Sequence record: NC_073068.1
Length of the DNA: 44,476 nucleotides
Direction: 5' to 3' (one strand)
Source of the DNA: Escherichia phage vB_EcoD_Pubbukkers
Position numbers and translations under genes: made by a program. Below the pieces are notes generated by a model. It did no database searches. It worked only from the letters and a program-made list of their open reading frames with translations, and was not told where the DNA came from. Below are positions 5,067 through 40,781 of this stretch, in pieces (positions within the stretch are counted from its first letter, which is position 1; every line of letters begins with the position of its first letter).

Positions 5067-5080
5067 TGGCCCCTTTTGTT
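5056..5080. terminator. rho-independent terminator between convergent genes
   Basis: GGGGCC-gtgat-GGCCCC stem followed by TTTTGTT; lies between the plus spanin ORF end (5066) and the minus gene end (5079). Confidence 0.6.
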
Positions 5081-5843
5081 AGCGTGGAATACCGCAGATT
5101 TCGTTTAACGTCTTCACATCCAGCGCCACCGCCGTGGACTTAGGCTTGTCCGGGTATGGAATGAACTGTTCCACTTCAGGCCACGCCTTGATCAGCTTCT
5201 TATCGGTATTGTGCATGTTCAGAACGCCGGTAACGGTTAGCTTGAACGCGTCATACTTAGCTCGCAACTCGCGTCGGGCCTTGTCGTTACGGTCCAGGCG
5301 CTTGCAGAAATCATGATCCGCCGGAAAATCAGCGCGGCAGCGTGGCTTATAGATCGGCAGCGCTTTCCCGTCCTCGTCCAATTCGCACACAGAAGCCAGC
5401 ATAACTTCTTCGTACCCAGGCACAATATCGCCGAGATCGGGAGATAGCATATTCATGTATTTATATTCCCAGTATCCGCGATGTATTCGGTATTGTCGTC
5501 CGTCACCGCTCAATGACAGTGTGCGCACATTTCCGCCTGCGTTGATTTCGAAAGTGGCGTCATAAACGCTGCCGATACCGTTCGGGCTGTCGGCGTCATA
5601 TCTATACGTCGCCTTGTTGGTGTATACGCAGACGCCGTACATCTGCGACGGGTCATCGCCGATTGCTTCAATGCGCTCACGTAGCTCGGCGAACGAATGA
5701 ATGCCTTCCGGCATACAGTCAAGCGTAATGGCGTACGCCAGATTTCGAGAGTCCATCATGATTGATTTGGCTTCGGTCGCGATTTCGTGGTCGCGCAGGA
5801 TGTTAGCCAGAATCTGGTTTTTAATGTCTTTCGTCAGTCTCAT
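5079..5843 (-). CDS. hypothetical protein (reverse-strand moron in head module)
   Basis: 255 aa starting MRLTKDIKNQ with RBS GAGGA; the ORF-track N-terminal extension (to 6224) is low-complexity antisense of the scaffold gene and is rejected. No recognisable motif. Confidence 0.6.
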   Translation of the reverse strand: MRLTKDIKNQILANILRDHEIATEAKSIMMDSRNLAYAITLDCMPEGIHSFAELRERIEAIGDDPSQMYGVCVYTNKATYRYDADSPNGIGSVYDATFEINAGGNVRTLSLSGDGRQYRIHRGYWEYKYMNMLSPDLGDIVPGYEEVMLASVCELDEDGKALPIYKPRCRADFPADHDFCKRLDRNDKARRELRAKYDAFKLTVTGVLNMHNTDKKLIKAWPEVEQFIPYPDKPKSTAVALDVKTLNEICGIPR

Positions 5844-5991
5844 TAGTGTGTCCTCGTTGTTGGTGTGCAACCAATATATGCAACCAATACGAGGATCGCA
5901 AGCGAATTTTGCGATTATTTTTATCGCTGATAATATTAGAAGCGTGAAGTCGAGCGGGTGGCCTGCTCTGCCACAATCCCAGGGGGATAGC

Positions 5992-11461: not shown

Positions 11462-11595
11462 TGAAGCGGGACAGGCGGGACGTCCCGTTTTGTCCCGCCT
11501 CTGTAAAACTGCATATCTACTCACTTCCACTGCATAAACTCAAAACGGGACAAGCGGGACGTCCCGCTTAGTCCCGCCCTGTAAATGTGCATACC

Positions 11596-11782
11596 TATGC
11601 AGTTTTATTGCATAAACTAAGCGGGACAAAAAGCGGGACAAACAAGGGGCGGGACAAAGCGGGACAGCACCCCGTCCCCGCCAGTGCTGCCGCGGTTTTC
11701 AGCCGATCGGGACAGCGGGACAGCACCCCAGTCTTTCAGACTAGACGGGGGTCAATGGCCCCCCTCGTCTGAGACTGAATAA
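11596..11782. repeat. copy 1 of a ~188-bp duplicated non-coding element (GCGGGACA iterons plus conserved stem-loop)
   Basis: Near-identical to 40076..40263; contains a TATGCA-gttttat-TGCATA palindrome, four tandem GCGGGACA units, two more after a divergent 26-bp segment, and the hairpin AGACGGGGG-loop-CCCCCCTCGTCT (11743-11770). Confidence 0.85.
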
Positions 11783-11845
11783 GGTTTGTTTTGAAATCGC
11801 TGATACAATATCCATCGGCAACTGCATAAAAAAGGGGACTGCATA

Positions 11846-14488
11846 ATGGCAGATCAGGCAGCAGGCATCACGCTAAAGGCTGATGTTGCACAAATCAGAA
11901 CGGCAAATACTGTGCTGGACTCCTTCGCACAGAAATCCGAGAACACAGAAAACAAGGTTAAGAAATTAAACGACACCCTCGGCAAATCCAAAAAGGTGAC
12001 GAGTGACGCCGCGGGCGGAATGGAAAAGCTGGCAAACGAATCGCAGCGCGCCGCCGATGGCATGACGAAACAGGAGCGACTCGCCAACAGGTTAGGCATG
12101 TCGACTAAAAACCTGGGCTTTGCCTCGCGTAACGCCGCATTCCAGTTACAGGATATCGCAGTTACGCTTGAGATGGGGATGCCGGTACACCGCGTTATGC
12201 TTCAGCAGTTACCGCAGCTAACTGGGGCGTTCGGTGGATTGGGTAACACTCTGCGTTATGTTGCTGGCTTCCTCGGTCCAGTTGGGATCGGCCTTGCTGC
12301 GGTAACGGCAACGTTAGGCGTGGGCGTAGCAATTACGTCCCGCGCAGAGAACCAGGTCGCAGCGCTTAACAAGACGCTGGCGCTGTCAGGTAACATTTCC
12401 GGCCTAACGGCAAACCAGATCCTGGTGCTATCCGAGAACGCCGAGCGCATGGGCGGATCATTCCGCAAGACGCGTGACACAATCCAGGCGCTGGCGGCGG
12501 CGGGTGTGAAAGCGGGGGCGGACTTCGGCGCGCTGGCGAAGGTTGTGAATGACTTCGCGAAGGCGTCTAATCAGCCGATCTCTGACGTGGTTGAATCCAT
12601 CTCAAAATTGTCGAACGACCCAGTGGGCGGACTGCGTGCGCTGGCGGATAAGTATCATGTCGTTACCGAGGCGCAGATCCAGCAGGTGCAATCGCTTGTA
12701 GATATGGGGCGTGAAACGGACGCGGTTGCTCTGGCTAACAAAACAGCCGCTGCGTCGTTCTCCAGCATGACCGATGAGGTAAAGTCCAACATGGGTACGC
12801 TTGAGCGGTCGATGAACGTAGTTACATCGGCAGCTAAATCTATGTGGGATGCCATCCTGGATGTGGGCCGCGCGCAGTCCTCGAATGAGTCCGAGATGAA
12901 AGCGCGTGAGTCCTTGCAGCGCATGACCACGGCGTACTATGCCGAGATGAGGGCGGTAAACGCTGCCGGTGGGGTGATGACCGAAGCGCAGAAAGCGCGT
13001 ATTAACATGCTTTACAGCGAACTGGTCGCCCAGGAAAAGGTAGTAGCGTCGCTCACCCTTCGCAACCGTGCCGAGCGAGACAGCGCCAGCGCCGCGGATG
13101 AAGCAGCAAAGGCGAACGAGGAGGCAAACCGCGCCGCCCGCGACCGCGCCGCGTTTGAGAAGGAGTACGCAACCAACGCGAAGCGGCGAGCCGACGAGAT
13201 CGCCCGCCTAAATTTGCTGAATAAGCGCGGTGTTATTAACGAGAAAGAACTAGCCGAGGCGGTGAAGCAGGTCAACGAGCGTTACAAAGACCCCGCGCCG
13301 AAGAAAGCGGCGGCAGTTCGAGTCGATGCCGGGCTGAAAATGCTGGAAGTCGCGCGAAGCGAATTAGCCCAGCTTCGTGAGTCTGGAAAGCAGATCGAAG
13401 CCAACGCATCGACGCAGACCCGCACGCAACGCGCGCAAGCGTCCCTGAACAAGCTGATTGCCGATAATGAGCAGTTAATCACCGCGAGCAAGGAGCGCGC
13501 ACTCACGGCAGCAGAAAAGCAGCAAACGGCGGCGTTCGAGGCGGTTAAATCGGTACGCGAGCAGATCGTCGAAGAAGCCAAATTGCTGGACGCGAAAGAG
13601 AAGCAGATCAAAGCACACGCCCAGGTCGATGCATTCATCAAGAACCAGAACGCCGAGCTAAAAGCCACCGCGGCGGGATATGCGCTTTCCACTCGCGAAG
13701 CGGCTAACCTGCGCGAAGAATTGCAGCTAATTGATCGCCTGAAGCGGGTGGGCGCTAACGATACCGATATTGATCTGGCGGTGTCTAAGCTGCGCGAAGT
13801 GCAGGAAGCACAGACCGGTGCTAACGCCTCGCTATGGGATGGCCTCAGCCGCGGGCTTAAGGATAGCGTTGATGAAATGGGTAACGGCTATACGCAGATG
13901 ACGTCACTCACAAAATTCACGTTCGGCGCTATGCAGGACACGATGAACGAGTTTTTCGAGACTGGCAAGCTGAACGCAAAAGATATGGTTAAGTCCATTC
14001 TGAGCGAATTAATAAAGCTGGCTACCTCGCAGGCATTCAAGTCCATCGTTAGCGCTTTCGGTGGCGACGGCGGCAAAAACGGATTGTTCGGCGCTATCTT
14101 CTCTGGCCTAACTAAGAATGCGGACGGAGGAGCGTACGCAGGGGGCAATCTCGCGGCCTATTCGGGGCAAGTGGTAAGCCAGCCCACCTTTTTCAGTTAC
14201 GGCGTCCAGGCGTTCGCAAAGGGCGCGGGATTGATGGGGGAGGCCGGACCAGAGGCCATCATGCCACTGAAGCGCGGCCCGGACGGCAAACTGGGCGTTG
14301 CCGCTGCCGGTGTAGGCGGAGGGATGATTGTAACGACCAACGTTAACATGGGGACCGGTAAGACGGATACCAGTGTTAGCGGTCCAGACCCGCGCACCGC
14401 GCAGGCGTTCGGAAAGCAAATCACCGAGTCGGTCAAGGCCGAGATCGTGAAGGCGACGAAACCGGGTGGTGTACTTTACAAACGATGA
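11846..14488 (+). CDS. tail tape measure protein
   Basis: 880 aa; long Ala/Gln/Glu-rich predicted helical protein with Gly-rich C-terminal region; lies between the G/GT chaperones and the minor tail genes. Confidence 0.88.
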   Translation: MADQAAGITLKADVAQIRTANTVLDSFAQKSENTENKVKKLNDTLGKSKKVTSDAAGGMEKLANESQRAADGMTKQERLANRLGMSTKNLGFASRNAAFQLQDIAVTLEMGMPVHRVMLQQLPQLTGAFGGLGNTLRYVAGFLGPVGIGLAAVTATLGVGVAITSRAENQVAALNKTLALSGNISGLTANQILVLSENAERMGGSFRKTRDTIQALAAAGVKAGADFGALAKVVNDFAKASNQPISDVVESISKLSNDPVGGLRALADKYHVVTEAQIQQVQSLVDMGRETDAVALANKTAAASFSSMTDEVKSNMGTLERSMNVVTSAAKSMWDAILDVGRAQSSNESEMKARESLQRMTTAYYAEMRAVNAAGGVMTEAQKARINMLYSELVAQEKVVASLTLRNRAERDSASAADEAAKANEEANRAARDRAAFEKEYATNAKRRADEIARLNLLNKRGVINEKELAEAVKQVNERYKDPAPKKAAAVRVDAGLKMLEVARSELAQLRESGKQIEANASTQTRTQRAQASLNKLIADNEQLITASKERALTAAEKQQTAAFEAVKSVREQIVEEAKLLDAKEKQIKAHAQVDAFIKNQNAELKATAAGYALSTREAANLREELQLIDRLKRVGANDTDIDLAVSKLREVQEAQTGANASLWDGLSRGLKDSVDEMGNGYTQMTSLTKFTFGAMQDTMNEFFETGKLNAKDMVKSILSELIKLATSQAFKSIVSAFGGDGGKNGLFGAIFSGLTKNADGGAYAGGNLAAYSGQVVSQPTFFSYGVQAFAKGAGLMGEAGPEAIMPLKRGPDGKLGVAAAGVGGGMIVTTNVNMGTGKTDTSVSGPDPRTAQAFGKQITESVKAEIVKATKPGGVLYKR

Positions 14489-26736: not shown

Positions 26737-26772
26737 TCAATATAATGCAACCAATACGGTTACGCAACCAAT

Positions 26773-29704: not shown

Positions 29705-29983
29705 CTATGCGACCAATTCAGCAACCAATAAATCGCAGTCGGATATGTTGTCGATAACGCGAACGTCAGCACCGCGGCGGGCCATTCGCTCATGTTCACG
29801 TACCTGGTGCGGCTTCGGTTTTCCTCCGGGGCGCTTCACTTCGACGAACACTATTTTGCCGTTGATGATAATAATCAGGTCGGGCGCACCTGCGCGCCCC
29901 TCCCATGCCAGTTTTCGGCAGAATCCGCCTACCTCTTTCACCCGTCGCATCAGGTGACTTTGAATCTTGCCTTCTGGTGTCAT
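29705..29983 (-). CDS. VRR-NUC domain nuclease
   Basis: 92 aa; PD-(D/E)xK-type core DLIIIINGKIVFVEVKRPGGKPKPHQ typical of VRR-NUC; start overlaps the polymerase stop. Confidence 0.7.
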   Translation of the reverse strand: MTPEGKIQSHLMRRVKEVGGFCRKLAWEGRAGAPDLIIIINGKIVFVEVKRPGGKPKPHQVREHERMARRGADVRVIDNISDCDLLVAELVA

Positions 29984-32900
29984 TACTTCCTGTACCTGTA
30001 CATGATGTCGCCTTCAGCGGCAAGCGGGAAGCCTTTCGCCCAAATAGGCAGGTCGCACATCAGCGCGCAAAGCTCCTCGGTCGTGTAGTCGTCGGTGTCC
30101 GGAACTTCGGTGATCAATTCATCGTGCACTGACAGGACGATTTCATATCCGGCAGCTTCAACGCCAGGCATGGACCACGCGAGGATATCGCGGCACAGCG
30201 CCTGTACGATGTTTTCCGTCAGTTTGCCGCCGTAGGTGTACTGGAACCCCCACTGGCGCGTCGTCTGATTCTCGCCCTGATATTTAATGCGGGTGCTGGT
30301 GCGCTTCTTGCCGGTGTCTTCGTCAATCTCGGTCGTGACCGACAGCGCGATGCCGGGGTAACTCATGATGCGCCCCGACGGCAACTCAATTTTCAACCAC
30401 CACCCCGCGGCGTTCGGGTCGTCGCGCTCCTCGTCAAAGGTTGGGTCGTGCTTCGCCTTCGTACGGACAATCTTGAGCGCTTTTCTACCGTCCGGGCGAA
30501 CGGTAGCGCCAGCCCAGTATGCTTTGCCCGGATTGCGTATTGCACACAACACCGCGTCCTCAAGCTCGGCCCAAAAGGCTACCGTCTTCGGGTGCGCCTC
30601 TCGCCACATGCGTTTAATCGCATCACACGTAAGCCATACGTTTTTCGGCAGTATGTAAGTCGGGCGCTCGTCCTTCTTGCCCGGCTTCGGCGGTCGCTTC
30701 GCTTCGTTAATGCGGGCGTACTCATAACCCCGTTTAGCCGCTGCCCAAATGTGATTGGGGAATGTGCCCTTCATGACGTCCGCCATCGCGTAAAGGTCGA
30801 GGCCCAGGTTTTTAGCGAACTGCAAGAACGCCGCGACGCCGCCACCATAGCCCAGGCCAAGCTCGCAGTTATGCGCCACCAGAAAACCAGACTTAGACGC
30901 AATAAGGAACCGGTTTCCGTCTTCCACATCAATCAGGTCGTAAACCGGCTCGCAATAGGTTAACTTCCCGTTCCAGTTCAGCAATGCGGGTAAGGGCTTC
31001 ATCGTACTTTCGCTGAAGCTCGGGCACGCTGCGCCGGTTACGGCAGTTTTCCGAACGGCTGACAAACCGAAGGTTTCCAGGCTCATAGTTGCTGTCTGTA
31101 TCGATCCGGTCCATTTCGAAGTCTGGATTATCCCAGCCGTCCAGCGTTTGAACGTAGAGAAGAAACGACCTTTTATCTCTCTGCCATTCGTCACATACGG
31201 CAATCCCACGACCGCCGTAGTTTTTATACCCTTTGGCGCGGGGGTTTGTCGTTCGTGATATTGCCGCTGACAGCCGGTTGAGCAACCGCGTTCTGTGCGC
31301 ATCGTCTGGCATTGCGTCATCGTAGCAAAAATACTGTTTACGATACCGCTTTGTCGCTTCAATTGCGCAGAGGTTGCATTGGGATGTTTTACCCCTTCGG
31401 ACGTTGTCATACCCGACGCGTCCTGGCATCGCTCCGCAATCACATTGGGCCAGCAGTTGTCTGTGCCCCTGTCGTTTTGGTAATTCGCGCAGGATAACCA
31501 GGCGTCCATACCTCTCGCCAGGGCGCGGGCCATCGTGCACCTGTCTGAAACGAGTTGCCTTGCCTCCTTCCATGAATGCGTCAAGATTTTGTGGTCTTCT
31601 GTCATCAAGACCCCGTCCACGTCTATCACTGGTTTCCACCCCATAAGGTGCGCGCCTTTTGTACTCACCCATTTTTCGCCGTTCCATACTTTATCCGTTG
31701 ATGTTACGGCCATAATATCCTTGAACCCGCCATCGGTCAATACTTGGGTATGGCGGTGCAAGCAAGCCTTCCCTATCTGGCGTAAGTCCTTGCGGTTAGC
31801 TTTAATGTAGTCCGGGTCCAGGCCGAACATCTTACCGGCAGTCTCACAATAGATATCACGACCGGCCTTAAACACCATTAGCGCGGTTTTCTCGCCAGCG
31901 ATCCAGGCAAGTCCACGCCCTTCCACGTTGGAGTAGTCCGCTACGACAAACTTCTTGCCCTTAGCCGGGATAATGCACCCGCGAACGGTCGAGGCTGTTA
32001 GCTTCGATATGTCGTACGCCCAGTGTGCGGTCCCGCGTAGCAGGGAATTGATGCCGTTGGTGAGCATGTGCGACCGGACCCAAAAAGCAACGTCGCTCTC
32101 GCCTTCGCGGCGCTTAATCTTCCCTTCGTGATCGTCGCTATACTCGCCGCGTGCCAGGTTTTGAGGCTGGAAGCCTTTACCGGCCCAGCGTAGCGTGCGC
32201 TTTGCCCCTCCATACTGAAGACAACCTCGGCGGCGACCGTCGGCGGATAGGCCATTAACGAGCGGATTGTACTTAGTCGACGCCGTGGATGACGCACCGA
32301 GGCGCATCTCGATAAGCACTTTGCCCTCGTCGGGGAAGTCTGGATCTTCCAGCAGGTCGTTAAGCGTGGATTTCTGCGCATTGTGGATTGTGAACGCAGG
32401 CGCGAGGTCGCGCAGCGCTGGCAGGAAGTCATTGCCGGTCAGCTTACCGCCGAAGCGCTCCCAGGCTTCTTCCTTCAATTCTTCCTTATGCGCCTGCACC
32501 GCTTTGATCGCGGCGTTCGCCAGGTCAACGTCCACATAGAAGCCGCGGTCATTGATCAACTGGTCGATAAGCAGGATTTCATCTTCCTTCGGGGTATTAC
32601 CCCAGTCCGGTATGCGCCAGTAGACCTCCCGCATCGCGATAATATCCAGCGCGGCATATCGCAGAAATTTGGCCCATTCTTCAGGGTGAGTCTCGCGAGT
32701 GTAGCGGCGGATTTTGTAAGTCTTAGGGGTAGGCTTGCAGAATCGTTTAATCAGCGCCTTGCCTGCCTTATCCTTCGCGTGCTCTGCGTCAACGCCCAGC
32801 ACCTGACACTGCATATCGAGGCTGCCCGGCAGCGCGTGCCGAAAGGCCATAATCATGGTATCTTCGATCTGGCTTACCGGCAGGTCGATTCCCCACTTTT

Positions 32901-33171
32901 CACGGATAACCAGGCGGTCAAACAGGAGGCCGTTAGCCATCACGATTTTTGCTTTCTTGCGGGATACCTGACGGAGCGCCTTGCGCAGTTCACGCGGCAT
33001 TGTTGGTGATTCAGTGGCATCCCATGTCTGCACGCGGCCTTCGTCGATGGCGTAGGTGCAAATCATGATCTCGGTGGTTGGGTGCTCTGCGTAGGCGTAC
33101 GCCCCTACTTTCTTCAGGTCCACCCCGCTAAATGTCTCGGTATCGAGAAACAGGCGTTCAAAGTTTTTCAT
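29983..33171 (-). CDS. DNA polymerase I family (3'-5' exonuclease plus polymerase) interrupted by an intein
   Basis: 1062 aa; Exo I FLDTETFS; motif A VADYSNVEGRGLAW; motif B split as RQIGKA | intein | CELGLGYGGG; motif C VLSVHDELITEV. Intein residues 470-768 carry block A (CLHRHTQVLTDGG), block B (ILTHSW), block F (VYDLIDVEDGNRFLIA) and block G (FLVAHN followed by +1 Cys). Confidence 0.85.
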   Translation of the reverse strand: MKNFERLFLDTETFSGVDLKKVGAYAYAEHPTTEIMICTYAIDEGRVQTWDATESPTMPRELRKALRQVSRKKAKIVMANGLLFDRLVIREKWGIDLPVSQIEDTMIMAFRHALPGSLDMQCQVLGVDAEHAKDKAGKALIKRFCKPTPKTYKIRRYTRETHPEEWAKFLRYAALDIIAMREVYWRIPDWGNTPKEDEILLIDQLINDRGFYVDVDLANAAIKAVQAHKEELKEEAWERFGGKLTGNDFLPALRDLAPAFTIHNAQKSTLNDLLEDPDFPDEGKVLIEMRLGASSTASTKYNPLVNGLSADGRRRGCLQYGGAKRTLRWAGKGFQPQNLARGEYSDDHEGKIKRREGESDVAFWVRSHMLTNGINSLLRGTAHWAYDISKLTASTVRGCIIPAKGKKFVVADYSNVEGRGLAWIAGEKTALMVFKAGRDIYCETAGKMFGLDPDYIKANRKDLRQIGKACLHRHTQVLTDGGFKDIMAVTSTDKVWNGEKWVSTKGAHLMGWKPVIDVDGVLMTEDHKILTHSWKEARQLVSDRCTMARALARGMDAWLSCANYQNDRGTDNCWPNVIAERCQDASGMTTSEGVKHPNATSAQLKRQSGIVNSIFATMTQCQTMRTERGCSTGCQRQYHERQTPAPKGIKTTAVVGLPYVTNGREIKGRFFSTFKRWTAGIIQTSKWTGSIQTATMSLETFGLSAVRKTAVTGAACPSFSESTMKPLPALLNWNGKLTYCEPVYDLIDVEDGNRFLIASKSGFLVAHNCELGLGYGGGVAAFLQFAKNLGLDLYAMADVMKGTFPNHIWAAAKRGYEYARINEAKRPPKPGKKDERPTYILPKNVWLTCDAIKRMWREAHPKTVAFWAELEDAVLCAIRNPGKAYWAGATVRPDGRKALKIVRTKAKHDPTFDEERDDPNAAGWWLKIELPSGRIMSYPGIALSVTTEIDEDTGKKRTSTRIKYQGENQTTRQWGFQYTYGGKLTENIVQALCRDILAWSMPGVEAAGYEIVLSVHDELITEVPDTDDYTTEELCALMCDLPIWAKGFPLAAEGDIMYRYRK
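30868..31764 (-). mobile_element. intein inserted in DNA polymerase motif B
   Basis: 299 codons between extein residues ...RQIGKA and CELGLGYG...; starts with Cys, ends with His-Asn followed by Cys; canonical Hint blocks at both ends; the central ~180 codons show no endonuclease motifs in the polymerase frame. Confidence 0.8.
30929..31687 (-). CDS. HNH homing endonuclease encoded in the -1 frame inside the polymerase intein
   Basis: 252-aa ORF offset by one nucleotide from the polymerase frame; contains GRLVILREL...CDCG...SQCNLC, KGYKNYGGRGIAVCDEW and DRIDTDSNYEPGNLRFVSRSENCRNR (HNH core). Likely true start at Met39 (31573); no strong RBS seen. Confidence 0.6.
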   Translation of the reverse strand: MERRKMGEYKRRAPYGVETSDRRGRGLDDRRPQNLDAFMEGGKATRFRQVHDGPRPGERYGRLVILRELPKRQGHRQLLAQCDCGAMPGRVGYDNVRRGKTSQCNLCAIEATKRYRKQYFCYDDAMPDDAHRTRLLNRLSAAISRTTNPRAKGYKNYGGRGIAVCDEWQRDKRSFLLYVQTLDGWDNPDFEMDRIDTDSNYEPGNLRFVSRSENCRNRRSVPELQRKYDEALTRIAELEREVNLLRAGLRPD

Positions 33172-33396: not shown

Positions 33397-34173
33397 TTAA
33401 CGGCGGCGACGTTTACGTGGCGCTTCGTCTTCGTCGTCGTCCTCATCTTCGTCATCGCGTGGCTTACGACGTTTACGTGGTGCTTCATCTTCGTCGTCGT
33501 CATCGCGGCGCTTGGACTTTTTGGACTTGCGCGGCTTGTCGTCTTCGTCATCGTCATCACGACGTTTTGACTTTTTGGACTTACGCGGGCTTTCGTCTTC
33601 GTCATCGTCGCCCAGGTCTTCGTCGGAACATGAAGACCCGCCACCTCCGAAGGCTTCGCCGTCTTCACGGAATCGCAGACCCAGCAAGCCTGCCCCGAGT
33701 CCCTTGCCGTTGGTATTGTTCCACGCCCAAATATCAAGGGACACGTTGCAATAACAACCGGAGTAGATCTCCTGGCCTTCAATCTCGTCGCCTTCTACGG
33801 TCAGACCTTGTTCAGTCTGCTTCTCGCCGAGTGACGTTTGAATGATAGGCTGTTTGAACGATTTGGCGTTGATATACAACATGCCTTCGAATTCTTCGGT
33901 CACTTCGTCGCGCTCGTCACCGTCGCGGACTGCGCATTCCTTCGAATCCTGGGCGTAGTGGCGGTCCATCCACTTATCGGCATTCTTCTCGGATTTCAGC
34001 TTGTCGGTGAGCACTGCGCGCGCTGCCGCTTCCACTTTGTCCACCTGCGGATCTTCTTTATCCAGAAGAATCACGGCACGGTATGCCGGTTTTTGCCCAT
34101 CCTGTTTAGGGGTATCACGTTCCCAAATTTTAAGGAAGCATACGCGCACATTTTTCAGGTTGACTTTAGCCAT
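33397..34173 (-). CDS. ssDNA-binding protein-like (DUF2815-like N-domain) with alternating acidic/basic repeat tail
   Basis: 258 aa from ATG 34173 (MAKVNLKNVRVCF) with RBS GAGGAA; C-terminal ~80 aa are repeats of D/E-rich blocks followed by PRKSKKSKRR-like blocks, ending RKRRRR; encoded by imperfect tandem DNA repeats. Confidence 0.5.
   Translation of the reverse strand: MAKVNLKNVRVCFLKIWERDTPKQDGQKPAYRAVILLDKEDPQVDKVEAAARAVLTDKLKSEKNADKWMDRHYAQDSKECAVRDGDERDEVTEEFEGMLYINAKSFKQPIIQTSLGEKQTEQGLTVEGDEIEGQEIYSGCYCNVSLDIWAWNNTNGKGLGAGLLGLRFREDGEAFGGGGSSCSDEDLGDDDEDESPRKSKKSKRRDDDDEDDKPRKSKKSKRRDDDDEDEAPRKRRKPRDDEDEDDDEDEAPRKRRRR
33408..33610. repeat. imperfect tandem repeats within the SSB-like gene 3' region
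   Basis: Two ~35-bp units (cgacgtttacgtggYgcttcRtcttcgtcgtcgtc) and two ~45-bp units (ttggactttttggacttRcgcgg...tcgtcttcgtcatcgtc) encoding the charged repeat tail. Confidence 0.6.
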
Positions 34174-36417: not shown

Positions 36418-36933
36418 TTAATCTTCCAGTTCGAAATAGGTTTCGACGATTTCTTTTAGCTCTTCGTGGAAGTCTTCGACGTCGTCATCTTCCAGCTTGG
36501 CGATTGATTTGATCTCGAACGATTCCAGCAGGTTGTCGAATTCGTCGTTCGCATCGTCGTCATCGCCACCGGCGATAATCGCGGCATACTGTTTGATTTC
36601 GTCGCGCATCTCTGCCAGCGGGTCGGCATCTTTCTTACCTTTGCCTTTCGCCGGTGCTTTCTTAGACTTAGCCGGTTTTTCGTCTTCGGCATCGTCGTCG
36701 TCATCTTCTACGACTTCTTTTTTAGCCTTACCTTTCGCCGGGGATTTTTTAGATTTAGCCGGTTTTTCGTCTTCGGCGTCATCGTCGTCATCTTCGACAA
36801 CTTCTTTTTTGGCCTTAGACGGCTTCTTATCTTCCTGTTTACCAACGGCAGCGCCAACGGTTTCATAATGCTTTGCAATGGTTTCCAGTGCTACTACGCC
36901 GCGAGTGATCAGGTTTACGATTTGCTCAAACAT
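36418..36933 (-). CDS. acidic/basic repeat protein (first gene of the leftward early operon)
   Basis: 171 aa from ATG 36933 (MFEQIVNLITRG) with RBS GGAG; two tandem ~28-aa repeats (KKEVVEDDDDDAEDEKPAKSKKxPAKGKxKK) and an acidic C-terminus; has its own promoter and terminator. Confidence 0.6.
   Translation of the reverse strand: MFEQIVNLITRGVVALETIAKHYETVGAAVGKQEDKKPSKAKKEVVEDDDDDAEDEKPAKSKKSPAKGKAKKEVVEDDDDDAEDEKPAKSKKAPAKGKGKKDADPLAEMRDEIKQYAAIIAGGDDDDANDEFDNLLESFEIKSIAKLEDDDVEDFHEELKEIVETYFELED
36635..36814. repeat. tandem ~90-bp repeat (2 units) inside the acidic-protein gene
   Basis: Units 36635-36727 and 36728-36814 are imperfect copies (ttacctttcgccgg...agccggtttttcgtcttcggc...atcgtcgtcatcttc...cttcttttttRgcc). 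Confidence 0.7.
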
Positions 36934-37335: not shown

Positions 37336-37665
37336 ATGAATGTAAACGACGCAATCGAAATGTTAACGAAGACTGTTTGCAGTGAGACTAGCCGGTCCTG
37401 GGCTTATACCGATGCCGTTGGGGAGGTGTTATTTGAAATCGAACGACTGCGCAGTGTCGAAAAAGAATTACGCGCCAGGCTGGAATTGCTCAACGGTACG
37501 GCGGCCAGCAAGCTGCAAAAGCACAATGAAGAAATGGAAGAATACAAAAAGCAGGTTATCCGTTTGCGCGCCGAGGGCAAATCCTGGGCGATGATTGCCG
37601 AGTTGACCGGAATTAATCAGAGCACAGTGCGCTCCTGGGTACGCAATAATAAAACTTCTAAGTAA
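37336..37665 (+). CDS. HTH DNA-binding protein (putative transcriptional regulator)
   Basis: 109 aa; C-terminal helix-turn-helix-like GKSWAMIAELTGINQSTVRSWVR; first gene of the rightward arm; perfect -35 TTGACA at 37276-37281 upstream. Confidence 0.55.
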   Translation: MNVNDAIEMLTKTVCSETSRSWAYTDAVGEVLFEIERLRSVEKELRARLELLNGTAASKLQKHNEEMEEYKKQVIRLRAEGKSWAMIAELTGINQSTVRSWVRNNKTSK

Positions 37666-37675
37666 GGCCACGGCA

Positions 37676-39940
37676 ATGAGCTTAATTAAATTCGCTGTAA
37701 CACGACCCGCTAAAAAAGGCGAAAAAGCCAGGGCGGAAAACTTCCAGATGACTACCGAAGAGTTTTTCGAATTTATCAATGATGCGAAAGAAATCTCCTC
37801 GGTGCATATCAACAAGACGGAAGATAAAGCCGAGTATGCGCGCCGCAAGCGTAAGGCCGATGGCATCGTAGCGTATACCAGTGACGGCTTACGCCGCAAG
37901 ACCAGTGCGGTGGACCGCTCGATCCTGTTCTTCGATATTGACCGTACCGACACCCGCACCCTACGCCGCTGCCGTAAGGCGTTCATCGACGCGGGACTGG
38001 AGCACGTCTTCCACACCACAACCGGCGACCGCCATCCGCTGAAAGGCGGCACGCGTTGCGCTCGATTCCTGGTACTCACGGACAAGCCTGTACCGGCTGA
38101 AGACCTGGGCCGTGTCCAGTATGCGCTATTACACCAACTGGGTCTGTCAGATGTGGACTTCGACGATTGCACGAAAGACACAAACCGCCTTATGTACCTG
38201 CCACACCAGCAATCGGTTGTTAAGTGTCACTACGGCAAACGCGCCCGCGTCCGTCGTCTTCTTCGCCTGGCTGATAAGCTGGGAATGGAAAAAGAGGAAG
38301 TCCGCCGCGAACTGACCCAGGGCGACGACGCAGTGGCAGACGGCATTCTGGACTGGTGCTTCCAGGCAGGATTCGAGGAGTTATCTTCCGGGCGGGGCTA
38401 TGAAGTGCCGTGCCCTAACGAACACCTACACAGCGGCGAAGGGTCCACCGCTATTATGGTCAAGGATGGCGAGATCCGTTTCAAGTGTATGCACACCGGC
38501 AACGAGTGTTGCTCGGAACTGAATAGACACCAGCACCTGGCGCTACGTCTTATCGGGATCCCGGACCACCTGAACGTCGAACCGCACAACATGTCACGTA
38601 AGCAAATCGCCGCCATCCTCCCAGGGCTGGACGACGAGGAAGTCGAATCATTATATGAACATATTGTTGATGCGGTTGGCGACGGCGAAGAATACGGCGT
38701 GTGCACCGATGCGGATCTGGATAACGAGCCGGTTGCGCTGTTCAGTAAGCACGACCCGATCATAGAAGGCCTGGTCAACTTCAAATCGACCTGGTATCTT
38801 GCTGGCGAGTCGAACATCGGTAAATCGTTCTACGTGCTGGGGCAAATGGGTGCGGTTGCCGCGGGGATTCCGTTCGGTGGCGCGAAGGTCGTCCAGTCTC
38901 ATTGCTTCTATTTCGACGCGGAAGGTGGCGAAGCCTCTAACCAGCGCAAAGAAGCATTGCAGATTAAATATGAGCACGACCTGGACAAGCTGCACATTAT
39001 CGATCTGCAATCACGCGGCTGGGATATCACCAGCAAATCCGGCTTGCGTGAAGTTATCAGCTTCATCAACCGCACCGCTAACGGCGAGCCGGTTGGCCTG
39101 GTGGCGTTCGACTCACTCAACCAGACTGTCGCGCTGCGGTCCGCCGATGCCAAACCGTTCGACGAGAACAACGCCAGCGATATGGGTGAAGTGGTCAAAG
39201 CGCTGAAGGCCATCGCGGAAAATACAGGCGGCAGCGCGGGCGTCATCCACCACCCGGCGAAGGGTGCAAACGGCAGCAGAACCCCCCGAGGGTCCGGCGC
39301 GCTGCATGGTGCTGTCGATTCTGCGTTCTTCCTGGAACAGCCGGACGACAACCAGCCCGGACAATTGAACCTGTATCATGAGAAGTCACGTAACGGCATC
39401 AAGCAAGCGCCGCGTGGCTTCGTCCTGCTCAAGTGCAAGGTGAAGGTGGATCTCCGCAAGTCCGAGGCGTTCGAGGCGCACCAGTCCACCAGCACCGGGC
39501 CAGACTTCGGCGATGTGGTTGCCGGTTGGGACGTCAAGCCAATTGCCTCCACGCCACGCGACGAGACTCTTTACCTCGTACCGGTCGCCCTGGCACCGTT
39601 CGCCATCGAGCAGGCGAAGTCCGCGGGCAAGGCCGCAGTTAAGGAAGAGAACGCCGCGGGACCGCGCAACGAAAAAGAGAAAGTGCTTTATGCGGCCCTG
39701 GAAAAACTGATGGAAGATAACCCGGACCATACTGGTTTCAGTAAATCGGCAATTGTCCGCCAGGCGGGACTCGCGAAGGGTGGTACTTCGACGAAGGCAA
39801 TCGACGATATGGTCGAGCGCGGCGTACTCGGTTTTTATACCGATCCGCACACCGGGGCCATCTATGGGTCGTCGAATATCGTCATCAAAACGAACATACC
39901 AATCACGCTTTCGGCGACCGATGATGATTTAAAAGATTAA
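37676..39940 (+). CDS. DNA primase/helicase (AEP prim-pol-like N-domain plus RecA-like ATPase)
   Basis: 754 aa; N-terminal ILFFDIDRTD (acidic D-x-D motif as in archaeo-eukaryotic primases); Cys/His cluster (CPNEHLHSGEG...FKCMHTGNECC); Walker A GESNIGKSF and VAFDSLNQ Walker B-like segment. Confidence 0.75.
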   Translation: MSLIKFAVTRPAKKGEKARAENFQMTTEEFFEFINDAKEISSVHINKTEDKAEYARRKRKADGIVAYTSDGLRRKTSAVDRSILFFDIDRTDTRTLRRCRKAFIDAGLEHVFHTTTGDRHPLKGGTRCARFLVLTDKPVPAEDLGRVQYALLHQLGLSDVDFDDCTKDTNRLMYLPHQQSVVKCHYGKRARVRRLLRLADKLGMEKEEVRRELTQGDDAVADGILDWCFQAGFEELSSGRGYEVPCPNEHLHSGEGSTAIMVKDGEIRFKCMHTGNECCSELNRHQHLALRLIGIPDHLNVEPHNMSRKQIAAILPGLDDEEVESLYEHIVDAVGDGEEYGVCTDADLDNEPVALFSKHDPIIEGLVNFKSTWYLAGESNIGKSFYVLGQMGAVAAGIPFGGAKVVQSHCFYFDAEGGEASNQRKEALQIKYEHDLDKLHIIDLQSRGWDITSKSGLREVISFINRTANGEPVGLVAFDSLNQTVALRSADAKPFDENNASDMGEVVKALKAIAENTGGSAGVIHHPAKGANGSRTPRGSGALHGAVDSAFFLEQPDDNQPGQLNLYHEKSRNGIKQAPRGFVLLKCKVKVDLRKSEAFEAHQSTSTGPDFGDVVAGWDVKPIASTPRDETLYLVPVALAPFAIEQAKSAGKAAVKEENAAGPRNEKEKVLYAALEKLMEDNPDHTGFSKSAIVRQAGLAKGGTSTKAIDDMVERGVLGFYTDPHTGAIYGSSNIVIKTNIPITLSATDDDLKD

Positions 39941-40015
39941 ATTTTGCGCGCATTGGTCGCCGTTATGGGAATCCCCATATCGGTAAAAGATTAAATTTTG
40001 CGCGCATTGGTTGCC
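39930..40015. repeat. pair of 32-bp direct repeats (31/32 identical) overlapping the primase stop
   Basis: taaaagattaaattttgcgcgcattggtYgcc at 39930-39961 and 39984-40015, 54-bp period; each ends in an ATTGGTYGCC motif. Confidence 0.8.
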
Positions 40016-40075
40016 ATTTTGCGTGCTTTTAGCTGGTCGTATTGGTTGCCGTGTAGTGTAAATATAATGAATAGT

Positions 40076-40263
40076 TATGCAGTTTTATTGCATAAAGTAA
40101 GCGGGACAAAAAGCGGGACAGACCAGGGGCGGGACAAAGCGGGACAGCACCCCTGTCCCGCCCCGGATGACGCGGCCTGGCGAGGAGCGGGACAGCGGGA
40201 CAGCACCCCAGTCTTTCAGACTAGACGGGGGGTCTGGCACCCCCCTCGTCTGAGACTGAATAA
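40076..40263. repeat. copy 2 of the ~188-bp duplicated element (GCGGGACA iterons plus conserved stem-loop)
   Basis: Aligns with 11596-11782: same TATGCA...TGCATA palindrome, four plus two GCGGGACA units and the same stem (loop sequence differs). Confidence 0.85.
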
Positions 40264-40475
40264 AATCCGGGATTGCATAACGCACGGCAACAAGATGCGG
40301 AGTGCGGTCGTCGATGAACTAGGCAACCAACGCGAGATGCATTATGCTGAGTGAAAAATTCAGTTTGCAGTTGCAGCAGATAGCGATCAACTTTTTCATG
40401 CGCGTGATTGATATTGGTTGCATTCGTCCTGCCAGGGTGTTAGATTGGTTGCATATCAAACGAAGGAGGGCATTC

Positions 40476-40781
40476 ATGAAGGCTTTAATCTGGAATTACA
40501 CATCAGCGGTCGCAGCGCTCTATGAAGCGAAGGCGCTGAACGGCAACGTAGACCGTGCGCGCCAGTTTGCGACACTGGCACACCAGTCAATCATGTGTGC
40601 GCTAGACGATATGGACGCCAGCATGGATGACCTGGGTCCGCTGCGTAAGGCAATCCATGAATACGCGCTGGCATTCTCCCGTGAGCGCCTGGCTTATCGC
40701 TTCGGTATTGGCGAGAAGGCAGTGACAAACGTAGCCAGGATTAAAGCCCAGCGTGAGCTATTCGCCCAGCTTGCGAAATAA
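40476..40781 (+). CDS. hypothetical protein
   Basis: 101 aa from ATG 40476 (MKALIWNYTS) with RBS AAGGAGGG; the ORF-track start at 40344 is rejected. Confidence 0.55.
   Translation: MKALIWNYTSAVAALYEAKALNGNVDRARQFATLAHQSIMCALDDMDASMDDLGPLRKAIHEYALAFSRERLAYRFGIGEKAVTNVARIKAQRELFAQLAK

Follow-up and report, generated by a model that had tools for sequence, protein, structure and literature searches.

We examined the replication region of Escherichia phage vB_EcoD_Pubbukkers (NC_073068.1) and in particular region B, a repeat-rich stretch (39941-40300) that directly follows the gene for a primase/helicase and makes up most of a proposed replication origin at ~39930-40300. The window, by which we mean the whole 44,476-nt stretch of DNA analysed, is a complete or nearly complete genome of a Dhillonvirus (the SO-1/HK578-like E. 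coli siphophages) with a G+C content of 54.6%, and the 3.4 kb around region B are 90-93% identical to SM_A8, JLBYU37 and the BASEL phages GeorgBuechner and KarlBarth. Structural genes occupy the plus strand from 1 to 23.6 kb, and a minus-strand block that includes the DNA polymerase extends from 23.6 to 37.1 kb. The plus-strand block from 37.3 to 44.4 kb opens with a small helix-turn-helix (HTH) protein and the 754-amino-acid primase/helicase and closes with lysis genes, and region B therein separates the early replication genes from those for lysis, packaging and structure.

Anatomy of the repeat regions

The features of region B and of its second copy, region A, are collected in Table 1. An original prediction, made from the letters of this DNA alone, had singled out two 32-bp direct repeats at the end of the primase/helicase gene, and these are present with 31 of 32 positions identical; they can be extended to 38 nt at 92% identity (39930-39967 and 39984-40021) and constitute a 54-bp tandem duplication that overlaps the stop codon of the gene. 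Each belongs to a unit that carries an ATTGGTYGCC motif (starts at 39952, 40006 and 40041). The units are followed by an AT-rich box that ranks second for AT content among all 40-mers of the genome, touches the first iteron and is proposed to be a DNA-unwinding element. The iteron itself, GCGGGACA, occurs 17 times in the whole window against 2.0 copies expected, and 13 of the 17 lie within regions A and B. In region B the first iteron is found within ~160 bp of the primase/helicase stop codon. The array is followed by a compound palindrome, which folds as DNA with -15.2 kcal/mol (z -3.9), could form either one long hairpin or a G/C hairpin next to a small one, and is proposed to be a helicase loading or priming site, and a conserved flank with a GCAACCAAC motif at 40322-40330 lies beyond it. 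A 118-amino-acid open reading frame (ORF) at 39998-40354 is not coding: it has no Pfam match, the relatives carry scattered 1-nt insertions and deletions, and their annotators called ORFs inconsistently, placing unrelated small ones on either strand across the same stretch.

Table 1. Positions of the primase/helicase gene, the two repeat regions and the ATTGGTYGC sites in the window
Feature	Position	Strand	Remarks
Primase/helicase gene, 754 amino acids (proposed initiator)	37676..39940	+	domains by Pfam, PHROG and AlphaFold
C-terminal winged-helix coding part (proposed iteron reader)	39671..39889	+	residues ~666-738
Variable-number units TTAAATTTTGCGCGC-ATTGGTYGCC, three copies	39930..40050	+	repeat and motif search
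AT-rich box, 20% G+C	40059..40098	+	holds ATGAATAGTTATGCAG (40067-40082) and hairpin TATGCA-N7-TGCATA (40076-40094)
Four direct GCGGGACA iterons	40101..40146	+	at 40101, 40113, 40129, 40139
Inverted iteron (TGTCCCGC on + strand)	40154..40161	-	dyad with fourth direct unit
Two abutting direct iterons (GCGGGACAGCGGGACA)	40187..40202	+	at 40187, 40195
Compound palindrome CAGTCT-TTC-AGACT-AGAC-G6(T)-loop-(A)C6-T-CGTCT-G-AGACTG	40209..40258	.	DNA fold
Conserved downstream flank GCATAACGCACGGCAACAAGAT, then inverted TTGGTTGC motif (GGCAACCAAC, 40321-40330)	40275..40330	+	cross-lineage conservation
Pair of ATTGGTTGC motifs	40413..40452	+	upstream of next gene (ribosome-binding site AAGGAGG, ATG at 40476)
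Region A	11462..11785	+	between tape-measure gene and the gene upstream of it (SO-1 gp16 counterpart)
Region A iteron palindromes, two	11464-11499, 11543-11578		
Region A box GTGCATACCTATGCAG	11587-11602		
Region A direct units	11621, 11633, 11649, 11659, 11707, 11715		
Region A compound palindrome	11729-11777		
ATTGGTYGC sites	5867-5888, 21982, 22994, 26747-26772, 27876, 29709-29729	-	
ATTGGTYGC sites	24842, 37137, 39952-40049, 40413-40452	+	

Region A is separated from region B by ~16 kb on the circular map and holds ~10 direct and 4-5 inverted units when read by eye. The six iteron units and the second copy of the element named in the original prediction were both recovered, with 11588-11782 matching 40068-40263 at 81-87% identity, a value that varies with span and alignment. 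The G/C stem of the palindrome is the same in the two regions and the loops differ (TCTGGCA versus TCAATGG), also as predicted. The sequence CTGCATA(A), which resembles the arms of the TGCATA hairpin, recurs around region A (11504-11536 and 11822-11846): two copies are located between the iteron palindromes and two immediately ahead of the tape-measure gene, of which the last overlaps the tape-measure ATG. A gap of 870 bp before the tape-measure gene has been described in Edwardsiella phage eiAU (PMC3025963).

Conservation of the array and its coupling to the winged helix

Both copies proved to be conserved among relatives: the element is held by 157 records of the phage collection, most of them with two copies. 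Identity is 87% among A copies, 86% among B copies and 77% between A and B. The A and B copies fall into two distinct groups, each made up of equivalent copies, which points to a duplication older than the radiation of the genus with both copies kept, and the pair is not the assembly artefact that the original prediction had allowed for. In an alignment of 24 Dhillonvirus copies (15 B and 9 A), all six direct CGGGACA units are invariant in 24/24 at an overall identity among copies of down to 68%. The palindrome flanks AGTCTTTCAGACTAGAC and CGTCTGAGACTG are likewise invariant, the G5-6/C5-6 stem is kept with about six different loops, and 1-nt insertions and deletions occur throughout the element. 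B copies have retained the inverted unit well; in many A copies it has decayed. In Ioannina, LM40P1 and HK578 region A, the fourth unit and the inverted unit form a loopless palindrome, CGGGACGTCCCG. The loop of TATGCA-N7-TGCATA (40076-40094 and 11596-11614) is found in either orientation among relatives (GTTTTAT or ATAAAAC), the hairpin being flipped whole, as occurs by recombination or template switching at short inverted repeats.

Other parts of the locus are less constant. The 32-bp direct repeat is a variable-copy unit present once, twice or three times per relative, so that the predicted repeats exist here but are not a fixed feature. The predicted TATAAT is likewise present (40064-40069) but not conserved, being replaced in relatives by TATAGT, AAGAAG or ATAAGT, and the promoter scan found no -35 partner for it. 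The record of Sodalis phage SO-1 (NC_013600 / GQ502199) marks the same two loci as repeat regions A and B. The wording of that annotation at the two loci speaks of direct, inverted and palindromic repeats resembling each other and, unlike the present account, does not resolve them into iterons, box and palindrome, relate them to a winged helix or compare lineages. Our literature searches found no paper discussing the SO-1 repeat regions.

The same layout extends well beyond the genus. Kagunavirus St162 (44% identity) and numerous metagenomic phage contigs (37-50%) encode full-length homologues of the primase/helicase; a search with a 105-amino-acid C-terminal fragment gave two matches, too few to align, and the full-length homologues were used instead. 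An array lies directly 3' of the homologous gene in Dhillonvirus, in Kagunavirus St162 and in at least nine metagenomic lineages with proteins 37-50% identical. In the other lineages it starts at the stop codon or a few bases from it and is present as one copy per genome, always after the helicase gene. Lineages with a conserved frame have units of 6-8 nt that differ from lineage to lineage (CGGGACA, GGGGAGA, AGGGATA, CGGACAA, CCGACA and GGGGAT(G)A) and keep the box, the spacer motif, the position of the palindrome and the downstream flank. The GTGAATAGTTATGCAG box is nearly invariant across lineages with differing iterons, and CACGGCARCAAAGAT is conserved 213-215 nt after the box in most of them (range 194-238). 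Inverted units are found at the position equivalent to 40154 in other lineages also, and the unit pair equivalent to that at 40187 is kept in all lineages that share the layout. All iterons of region B in the window are on one side of the AT-rich box, whereas St162 and lineages L057, L060 and L078 have one or two units before it.

In St162 the order after the stop codon is as follows: a motif of the TTGGCTGC type; GAATAGTTATGCAG-AAAAA-GTGAATAGTTATG as the box; direct repeats, four to five in number, spaced by A-rich DNA and accompanied by inverted repeats; a spacer containing GGGTTTGTTGCCGA; another two repeats; a palindrome centred on G/C; and ACACGGCAACAAAGAT at the end. Its unit, GGGGAGA, occurs six times in this region, and the rest of the 42.7 kb contains a single further copy. 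Where the layout is looser, the stop codon is followed immediately by TTGCGA/TCGCAA, GGGGATC/GATCCCC or TCCGCACA/TGTGCGGA. The arms of the palindrome are lineage-specific yet complementary in at least seven lineages (AGTCT/AGACT, ATCCTC/GAGGAT, ATCATC/GATGAT, TCTCC/GGAGA), and DNA folds gave z-scores of -2.5 to -4.6 in 10 of 11 lineage representatives. Covariation in the palindrome was judged from these per-lineage folds because RNAalifold, applied to a MAFFT alignment with the 3' arms out of register, recovered the central G/C stem alone. In most lineages each arm contains a small hairpin of its own, so that the element could form either one long hairpin or a G/C hairpin flanked by one or two small ones.

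Variants of this arrangement were also seen. In L064, a lineage of 45% identity, the sole repeat after the helicase gene (5280-5600) is GCAACCAAC in six to seven copies. The more distant Kagunavirus Sciku and Jerseyvirus ZCSE9 have clusters of GAGTGA and AGTTAC in non-coding DNA upstream of the helicase gene (L025, ~900; L026, ~700). No counterpart of region A was detected in St162 or the other lineages scanned, and region A was seen only in Dhillonvirus. Since the other lineages have a single copy after the helicase gene, region B is the ancestral copy and region A a secondary, Dhillonvirus-specific duplicate.

The protein encoded next to the array combines several activities in its predicted domains. 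Pfam recognizes one domain only, AAA_25 (PF13481, a RepA-like helicase, residues 357-531, E 1.3e-19), and the protein matches PHROG 3228, replicative helicase-primase; it has no sequence similarity to any PDB chain. An AEP PrimPol domain occupies approximately residues 1-200 and is followed by a Cys/His zinc-like motif (246-287). The AlphaFold model of residues 1-345 (pLDDT 85.5) has its best PDB fold match in the AEP domain of the cyanophage S-2L PrimPol (6zp9_A, E 1.2e-5, probability 1.0), with LigD-polymerase and Prim-PolC next, and D87, D89 and the Cys/His cluster are invariant among homologues. In the model of residues 585-754, the part comprising residues 666-738 has a pLDDT of 80-88 and a helix/strand order of H-b-H-H-b-b, and its PDB fold matches are all winged-helix DNA binders (MarR family, MepR-DNA, histone H1; probability 0.9-0.99). 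This modelled combination of AEP PrimPol, RepA-like helicase and winged helix would fit a self-contained initiator. Even at 26% identity, the protein of each lineage closes with an acidic tail of the form (D/E)(D/E)DL(x)(D/N) (here DDDLKD, 39920-39940), which recalls the polymerase-binding acidic C-terminal tails of T7 replication proteins.

Comparison of related phages indicates that the winged helix and the iterons change together. St162 and L057, which have different iterons (GGGGAGA versus CGGACAA), are 97% identical in the AEP domain and 98% in the helicase, with the winged helix at 43%; the corresponding values for L060 and L063 (CGGACAA versus CCGACA) are 98%, 97% and 50%. Conversely, L057 and L060 share CGGACAA at identities of 80% (AEP), 85% (helicase) and 65% (winged helix), and L054 and L063 share CCGACA at 77%, 78% and 68%. 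The most similar winged helices are thus those of phages with the same iteron, even where the rest of the protein is 77-85% identical. Averaged over all pairs, winged-helix identity is 75% with the same iteron versus 39% with different iterons, and helicase identity 84% versus 69%. Variation is greatest in the four residues that open the predicted recognition helix (TSTK, DRYK, RRRP, NRRP, RRRA/RRRS, GRYA), with TSTK in Dhillonvirus, DRYK in St162, RRRP in the group with CCGACA and RRRA/RRRS in that with CGGACAA. In the pairs that have swapped iterons, the DNA that joins the winged-helix codons to the repeats (tail codons, TTGGCTG motif and box) is near-identical, as is the downstream flank, and every one of the scattered repeat units is altered. 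The change thus does not form a single linked stretch, and simple linkage offers no explanation for it. Taken together, these comparisons suggest that the winged helix sets iteron specificity. It was rejected as reader of the TTGGYTGC motif, which is unchanged between St162 and L057 while their winged helices are 43% identical.

A probable replication origin and the alternatives

Because the repeats change with the winged helix in related phages, region B is likely the site that the primase/helicase binds to start replication. On the combined grounds of position, anatomy, covariation and analogy, from which we infer that the origin fires, region B (~39930-40300) is probably an iteron-type replication origin served by a self-loading protein encoded immediately upstream. 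The location beside the primase/helicase gene, as originally predicted, is thereby supported strongly, though indirectly, by the comparative data. In the mechanism that we propose, the C-terminal winged helix would bind the CGGGACA units of region B (six direct and one inverted), as the covariation suggests, and several protomers would assemble on the array and melt the adjoining box of 20% G+C, as suggested by the anatomy and by analogy with SaPI, pRN1 and RSF1010. The compound palindrome might be extruded, either as a hairpin or as a cruciform. Judging from the domain content, the RepA-type helicase ring could then be loaded onto the single strand thus exposed, and the first primers for the phage family A DNA polymerase could be synthesised by the AEP primase at the N terminus. 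The upstream ATTGGTYGCC units, which belong to a separate motif family, may bring regulation or transcription to the origin.

Each component of this arrangement has a counterpart in systems that have been characterised. The SaPI ori contains 6-12 short iterons immediately downstream of rep that are read by the C-terminal winged helix of a self-loading helicase (PMC9371898). The SaPI/PICI elements and the phage have in common an origin, proposed in the case of the phage, immediately 3' of the initiator-helicase gene and lineage-specific iterons in both orientations near an AT-rich stretch, and the six direct and one inverted units of region B fall within the SaPI-type range of 6-12 iterons in opposing orientations. 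The SaPI iterons measure 5-6 nt against 7-8 nt in the phage, and SaPI5 has primase and helicase joined in one protein (PMC9371898). The SaPI helicase is SF3 or MCM-like, however, whereas that of the phage is RepA/AAA_25 with a fused AEP primase domain; the box of the phage adjoins the main array, mostly on one side of it, where the SaPI type has a central AT-rich region between flanking iterons; and the phage adds a conserved compound palindrome, to which the Dhillonviruses add a second copy.

The alpha protein of P4 unites primase, helicase and a C-terminal winged-helix origin binder in one polypeptide (PMC4234260). Its primase is of the Toprim class and its helicase SF3 (D5-like), in contrast to the AEP and AAA_25 domains of the phage protein. 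Ziegelin and Lanka reportedly found in 1995 that the octamer iterons of P4 are distributed over two separated regions, ori and crr, both bound by the protein. The two separated and conserved regions of Dhillonvirus, B and A, are a parallel to this, and region A may be another origin or may act in cis as a partner of B, much as P4 requires crr in cis.

In pRN1, a stem-loop origin is located just downstream of the gene for an AEP-helicase-winged-helix protein (ORF904), and an origin of this type, with diverging sequence and retained structure, has also been proposed for Bordetella phage BIP-1 (PMC4234260). The phage described here shares with pRN1 the AEP primase-polymerase, helicase and winged helix and a stem-loop 3' of its own gene in which structure is kept over sequence. 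It differs in that pRN1 has no iterons, an SF3 helicase and a stem-loop of ~100 bp, whereas the phage palindrome is ~50 bp and is preceded by an iteron array. The oriV of RSF1010 comprises iterons, an AT-rich segment and inverted ssiA/ssiB hairpins and employs a RepA helicase and an AEP primase (PMC8567376, PMC4234260). The RepA-family helicase and AEP primase recur in the phage, but fused in one protein, whereas RSF1010 has three separate proteins (RepA, RepB' and RepC), of which RepC reads the iterons. RSF1010 iterons are 20-mers, and the phage units are 7-8 bp. The small hairpin within each palindrome arm of most lineages invites comparison with the ssi hairpins, with a putative role in priming.

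By descent, the phage system is a member of none of these four. Its helicase class is unlike that of SaPI, P4 and pRN1 and its primase class unlike that of P4, a Pfam scan of four ORFs around region B found no RepC-like domain, and its units are much shorter than RSF1010 iterons. The kind of system is thus already known and no new principle is involved, but the particular combination has not been described previously: a fused AEP/RepA-helicase/winged-helix protein, an array with AT-rich box and compound palindrome, exchange of winged helix and iterons as one module, and a second conserved copy in the tail genes.

Covariation by itself shows protein-repeat coupling only, and the arrays could be bound by the winged helix and have no role in initiation, serving instead in autoregulation of the replication operon, as a transcriptional roadblock or attenuator, in pairing of A with B, or in helicase loading for recombination-dependent replication. 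Region A is located at a point of the tail operon where reduced expression of the tape-measure gene would be plausible, the annotators of HK578 called a terminator there, and both copies are in the orientation of transcription. We nevertheless consider this alternative unlikely, since an AT-rich box and palindrome beside the array are typical of origins, every characterised system with such an arrangement of protein and array uses the array as an origin, and no intrinsic terminator was called in either region.

A second alternative is that the element acts as RNA, in a short structured transcript or leader comparable to lambda PR'-qut-6S-tR' or the HK022 put RNAs, with repeats that form alternative hairpins. 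Scans for promoters and terminators found no sigma-70 promoter and no intrinsic terminator in region B, region A or the St162 counterpart. Region B does lie at the boundary of early replication genes and late genes and region A inside the late operon, both with the same strand as sense. RNA folding of region B gives a z-score of -3.9, there is the TATAAT at 40064, and in one relative a terminator is annotated over the iteron dyad. The TATAAT is not conserved, however, and in the region B sequence no hairpin is followed by a run of T. Rfam returned nothing at gathering thresholds and, below them, only noise in the form of hairpin-like matches to eukaryotic families. In A copies the inverted units have poorly preserved their capacity for pairing, and 7-mers that are invariant, specific to the lineage and coupled to a DNA-binding domain suggest that it is double-stranded DNA that is recognized. 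We therefore regard an RNA-level function as improbable, and a promoter with terminator or a small RNA gene was rejected on the outcome of the consensus scans and Rfam.

Two dispersed copies with inverted repeats might also be expected of a selfish, MITE-like repeat or of a packaging (pac) signal with no role in replication, and small terminase subunits often bind arrays of short repeats. Yet the related genomes have no copies besides the two at fixed, equivalent positions, other lineages have the single copy after the helicase gene, and there are neither terminal inverted repeats nor target-site duplications. Furthermore, the repeats track the winged helix of the helicase and not the terminase. 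Packaging is headful and the genomes are conventionally opened at the small terminase gene, ~4.4 kb downstream of region B (PMC9022532). Such an explanation is very improbable.

Several observations weigh against an origin at region B. The literature yielded no marker-frequency, two-dimensional gel or binding data for any Dhillonvirus, and no publication defining Dhillonvirus or Kagunavirus origins was found; HK578 turned up in the SPARHA paper, but not in connection with origins. Covariation of adjacent sequences is partly confounded by their physical linkage, and the E-values of the winged-helix fold matches are weak (0.013 or more). In some lineages whose proteins are 43-44% identical, the 3 kb around the gene contain no array. 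The conserved copy A inside the tail genes is not predicted by a simple model with one origin, and the shared orientation of A and B with transcription would also suit a role at the RNA level. Finally, the minimum of cumulative GC skew is at 36-37 kb, the point of divergent transcription, and not at 40.1 kb (the maximum is at ~23 kb); the skew tracks gene orientation and is hence uninformative, and it was dropped as an origin locator. As regards the host initiator, no DnaA box (TTATNCACA) within one mismatch was found in 39930-40340 and the genome contains 31 such sites against 25.8 expected. DnaA was accordingly rejected as the reader of the GTGAATAGTTATGCAG box.

The role of the second copy invites a more specific suggestion, which we offer tentatively and with some doubt. 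In Dhillonvirus, replication might involve two sites, with the winged helix of one fused protein binding both A and B, either as two origins or as an origin and a crr-like partner, and with the palindrome as an ssi-like hairpin signal for priming or loading. If so, a virulent siphophage would join the logic of three IncQ proteins in one protein and locus, and specificity could be reprogrammed by exchanging the winged-helix/iteron module.

Dhillonviruses and Kagunaviruses are common phages of E. coli and Salmonella and are used in the BASEL collection and in phage-therapy work. For these phages, the present analysis provides a candidate origin at base level and names a binding domain with predicted specificity residues at the start of its recognition helix, and the natural swap pairs predict which protein binds which repeat. 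If region B is indeed an origin, these pairs would supply orthogonal origin/initiator combinations for phage engineering and would explain a recombination hot spot inside a replication gene. The scheme of a self-loading initiator-helicase with 3' iterons would also be extended from satellites and plasmids to lytic siphophages with an AEP/RepA-type fusion.

The ATTGGTYGC motif family and neighbouring genes

The ATTGGTYGC motif occurs at 16 sites in the window against ~1 expected, often in pairs and for the most part pointing the same way as the gene that follows. Five of the sites have a -10-like TAnnnT 16-17 bp downstream of the motif's TTGC, and the family is probably a phage-specific promoter or operator element. 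Since the family is genome-wide and associated with promoters, the three copies in region B are not in themselves evidence of an origin. The original prediction had counted them, together with the further GCAACCAAC motif, toward the origin; all are present, but they are members of this 16-site family and not origin-specific. The related forms GTTGGCTGC, GTTGGCCGC and GTTGGCAGC are found in the origin region of other lineages, even within the last helicase codons and in either orientation, and they dictate different amino acids there (QPT, MLA, ELVA). The ATTGGTTGC pair at 40413-40452 is probably the promoter/operator of the next gene and outside the origin core. The match of PHROG 9839 covers residues 45-145 of ORF 40344-40781 and puts the true start of that gene at 40476.

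Directly upstream of the primase/helicase gene, 37336-37665 (+) encodes a 109-amino-acid protein with a C-terminal HTH (HTH_23 / sigma-70 region 4-like), which records variously call transposase or resolvase and which is restricted to Dhillonvirus-level lineages. It is a candidate reader of ATTGGTTGC. It was rejected as reader of the iterons given this restriction, whereas the array architecture is distributed much more widely.

The DNA polymerase ORF (29983-33171, minus strand) encodes 1062 amino acids here versus 763 in HK578, and a 252-amino-acid ORF (30929-31687, minus strand) without a Pfam match is nested within it in another frame. The SO-1 record annotates a group I intron with an HNH endonuclease at the DNA polymerase; in the window the frame is unbroken and no Rfam group I intron was found. 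A minus-strand gene at 5079-5843, inside the plus-strand block of head genes, encodes an Nmad5 protein (nucleotide modification associated domain 5; Pfam E 1.8e-56), and two ATTGGTTGC motifs lie ahead of it. Other genes occupy this spot in SO-1 and HK578, and it looks like a variable slot for inserted, moron-like genes. In-frame tandem repeats of 54-60 bp and 87 bp are present in two minus-strand genes at 33407-33612 and 36624-36797, and the protein stretches that they encode are, by eye, charged and of low complexity.

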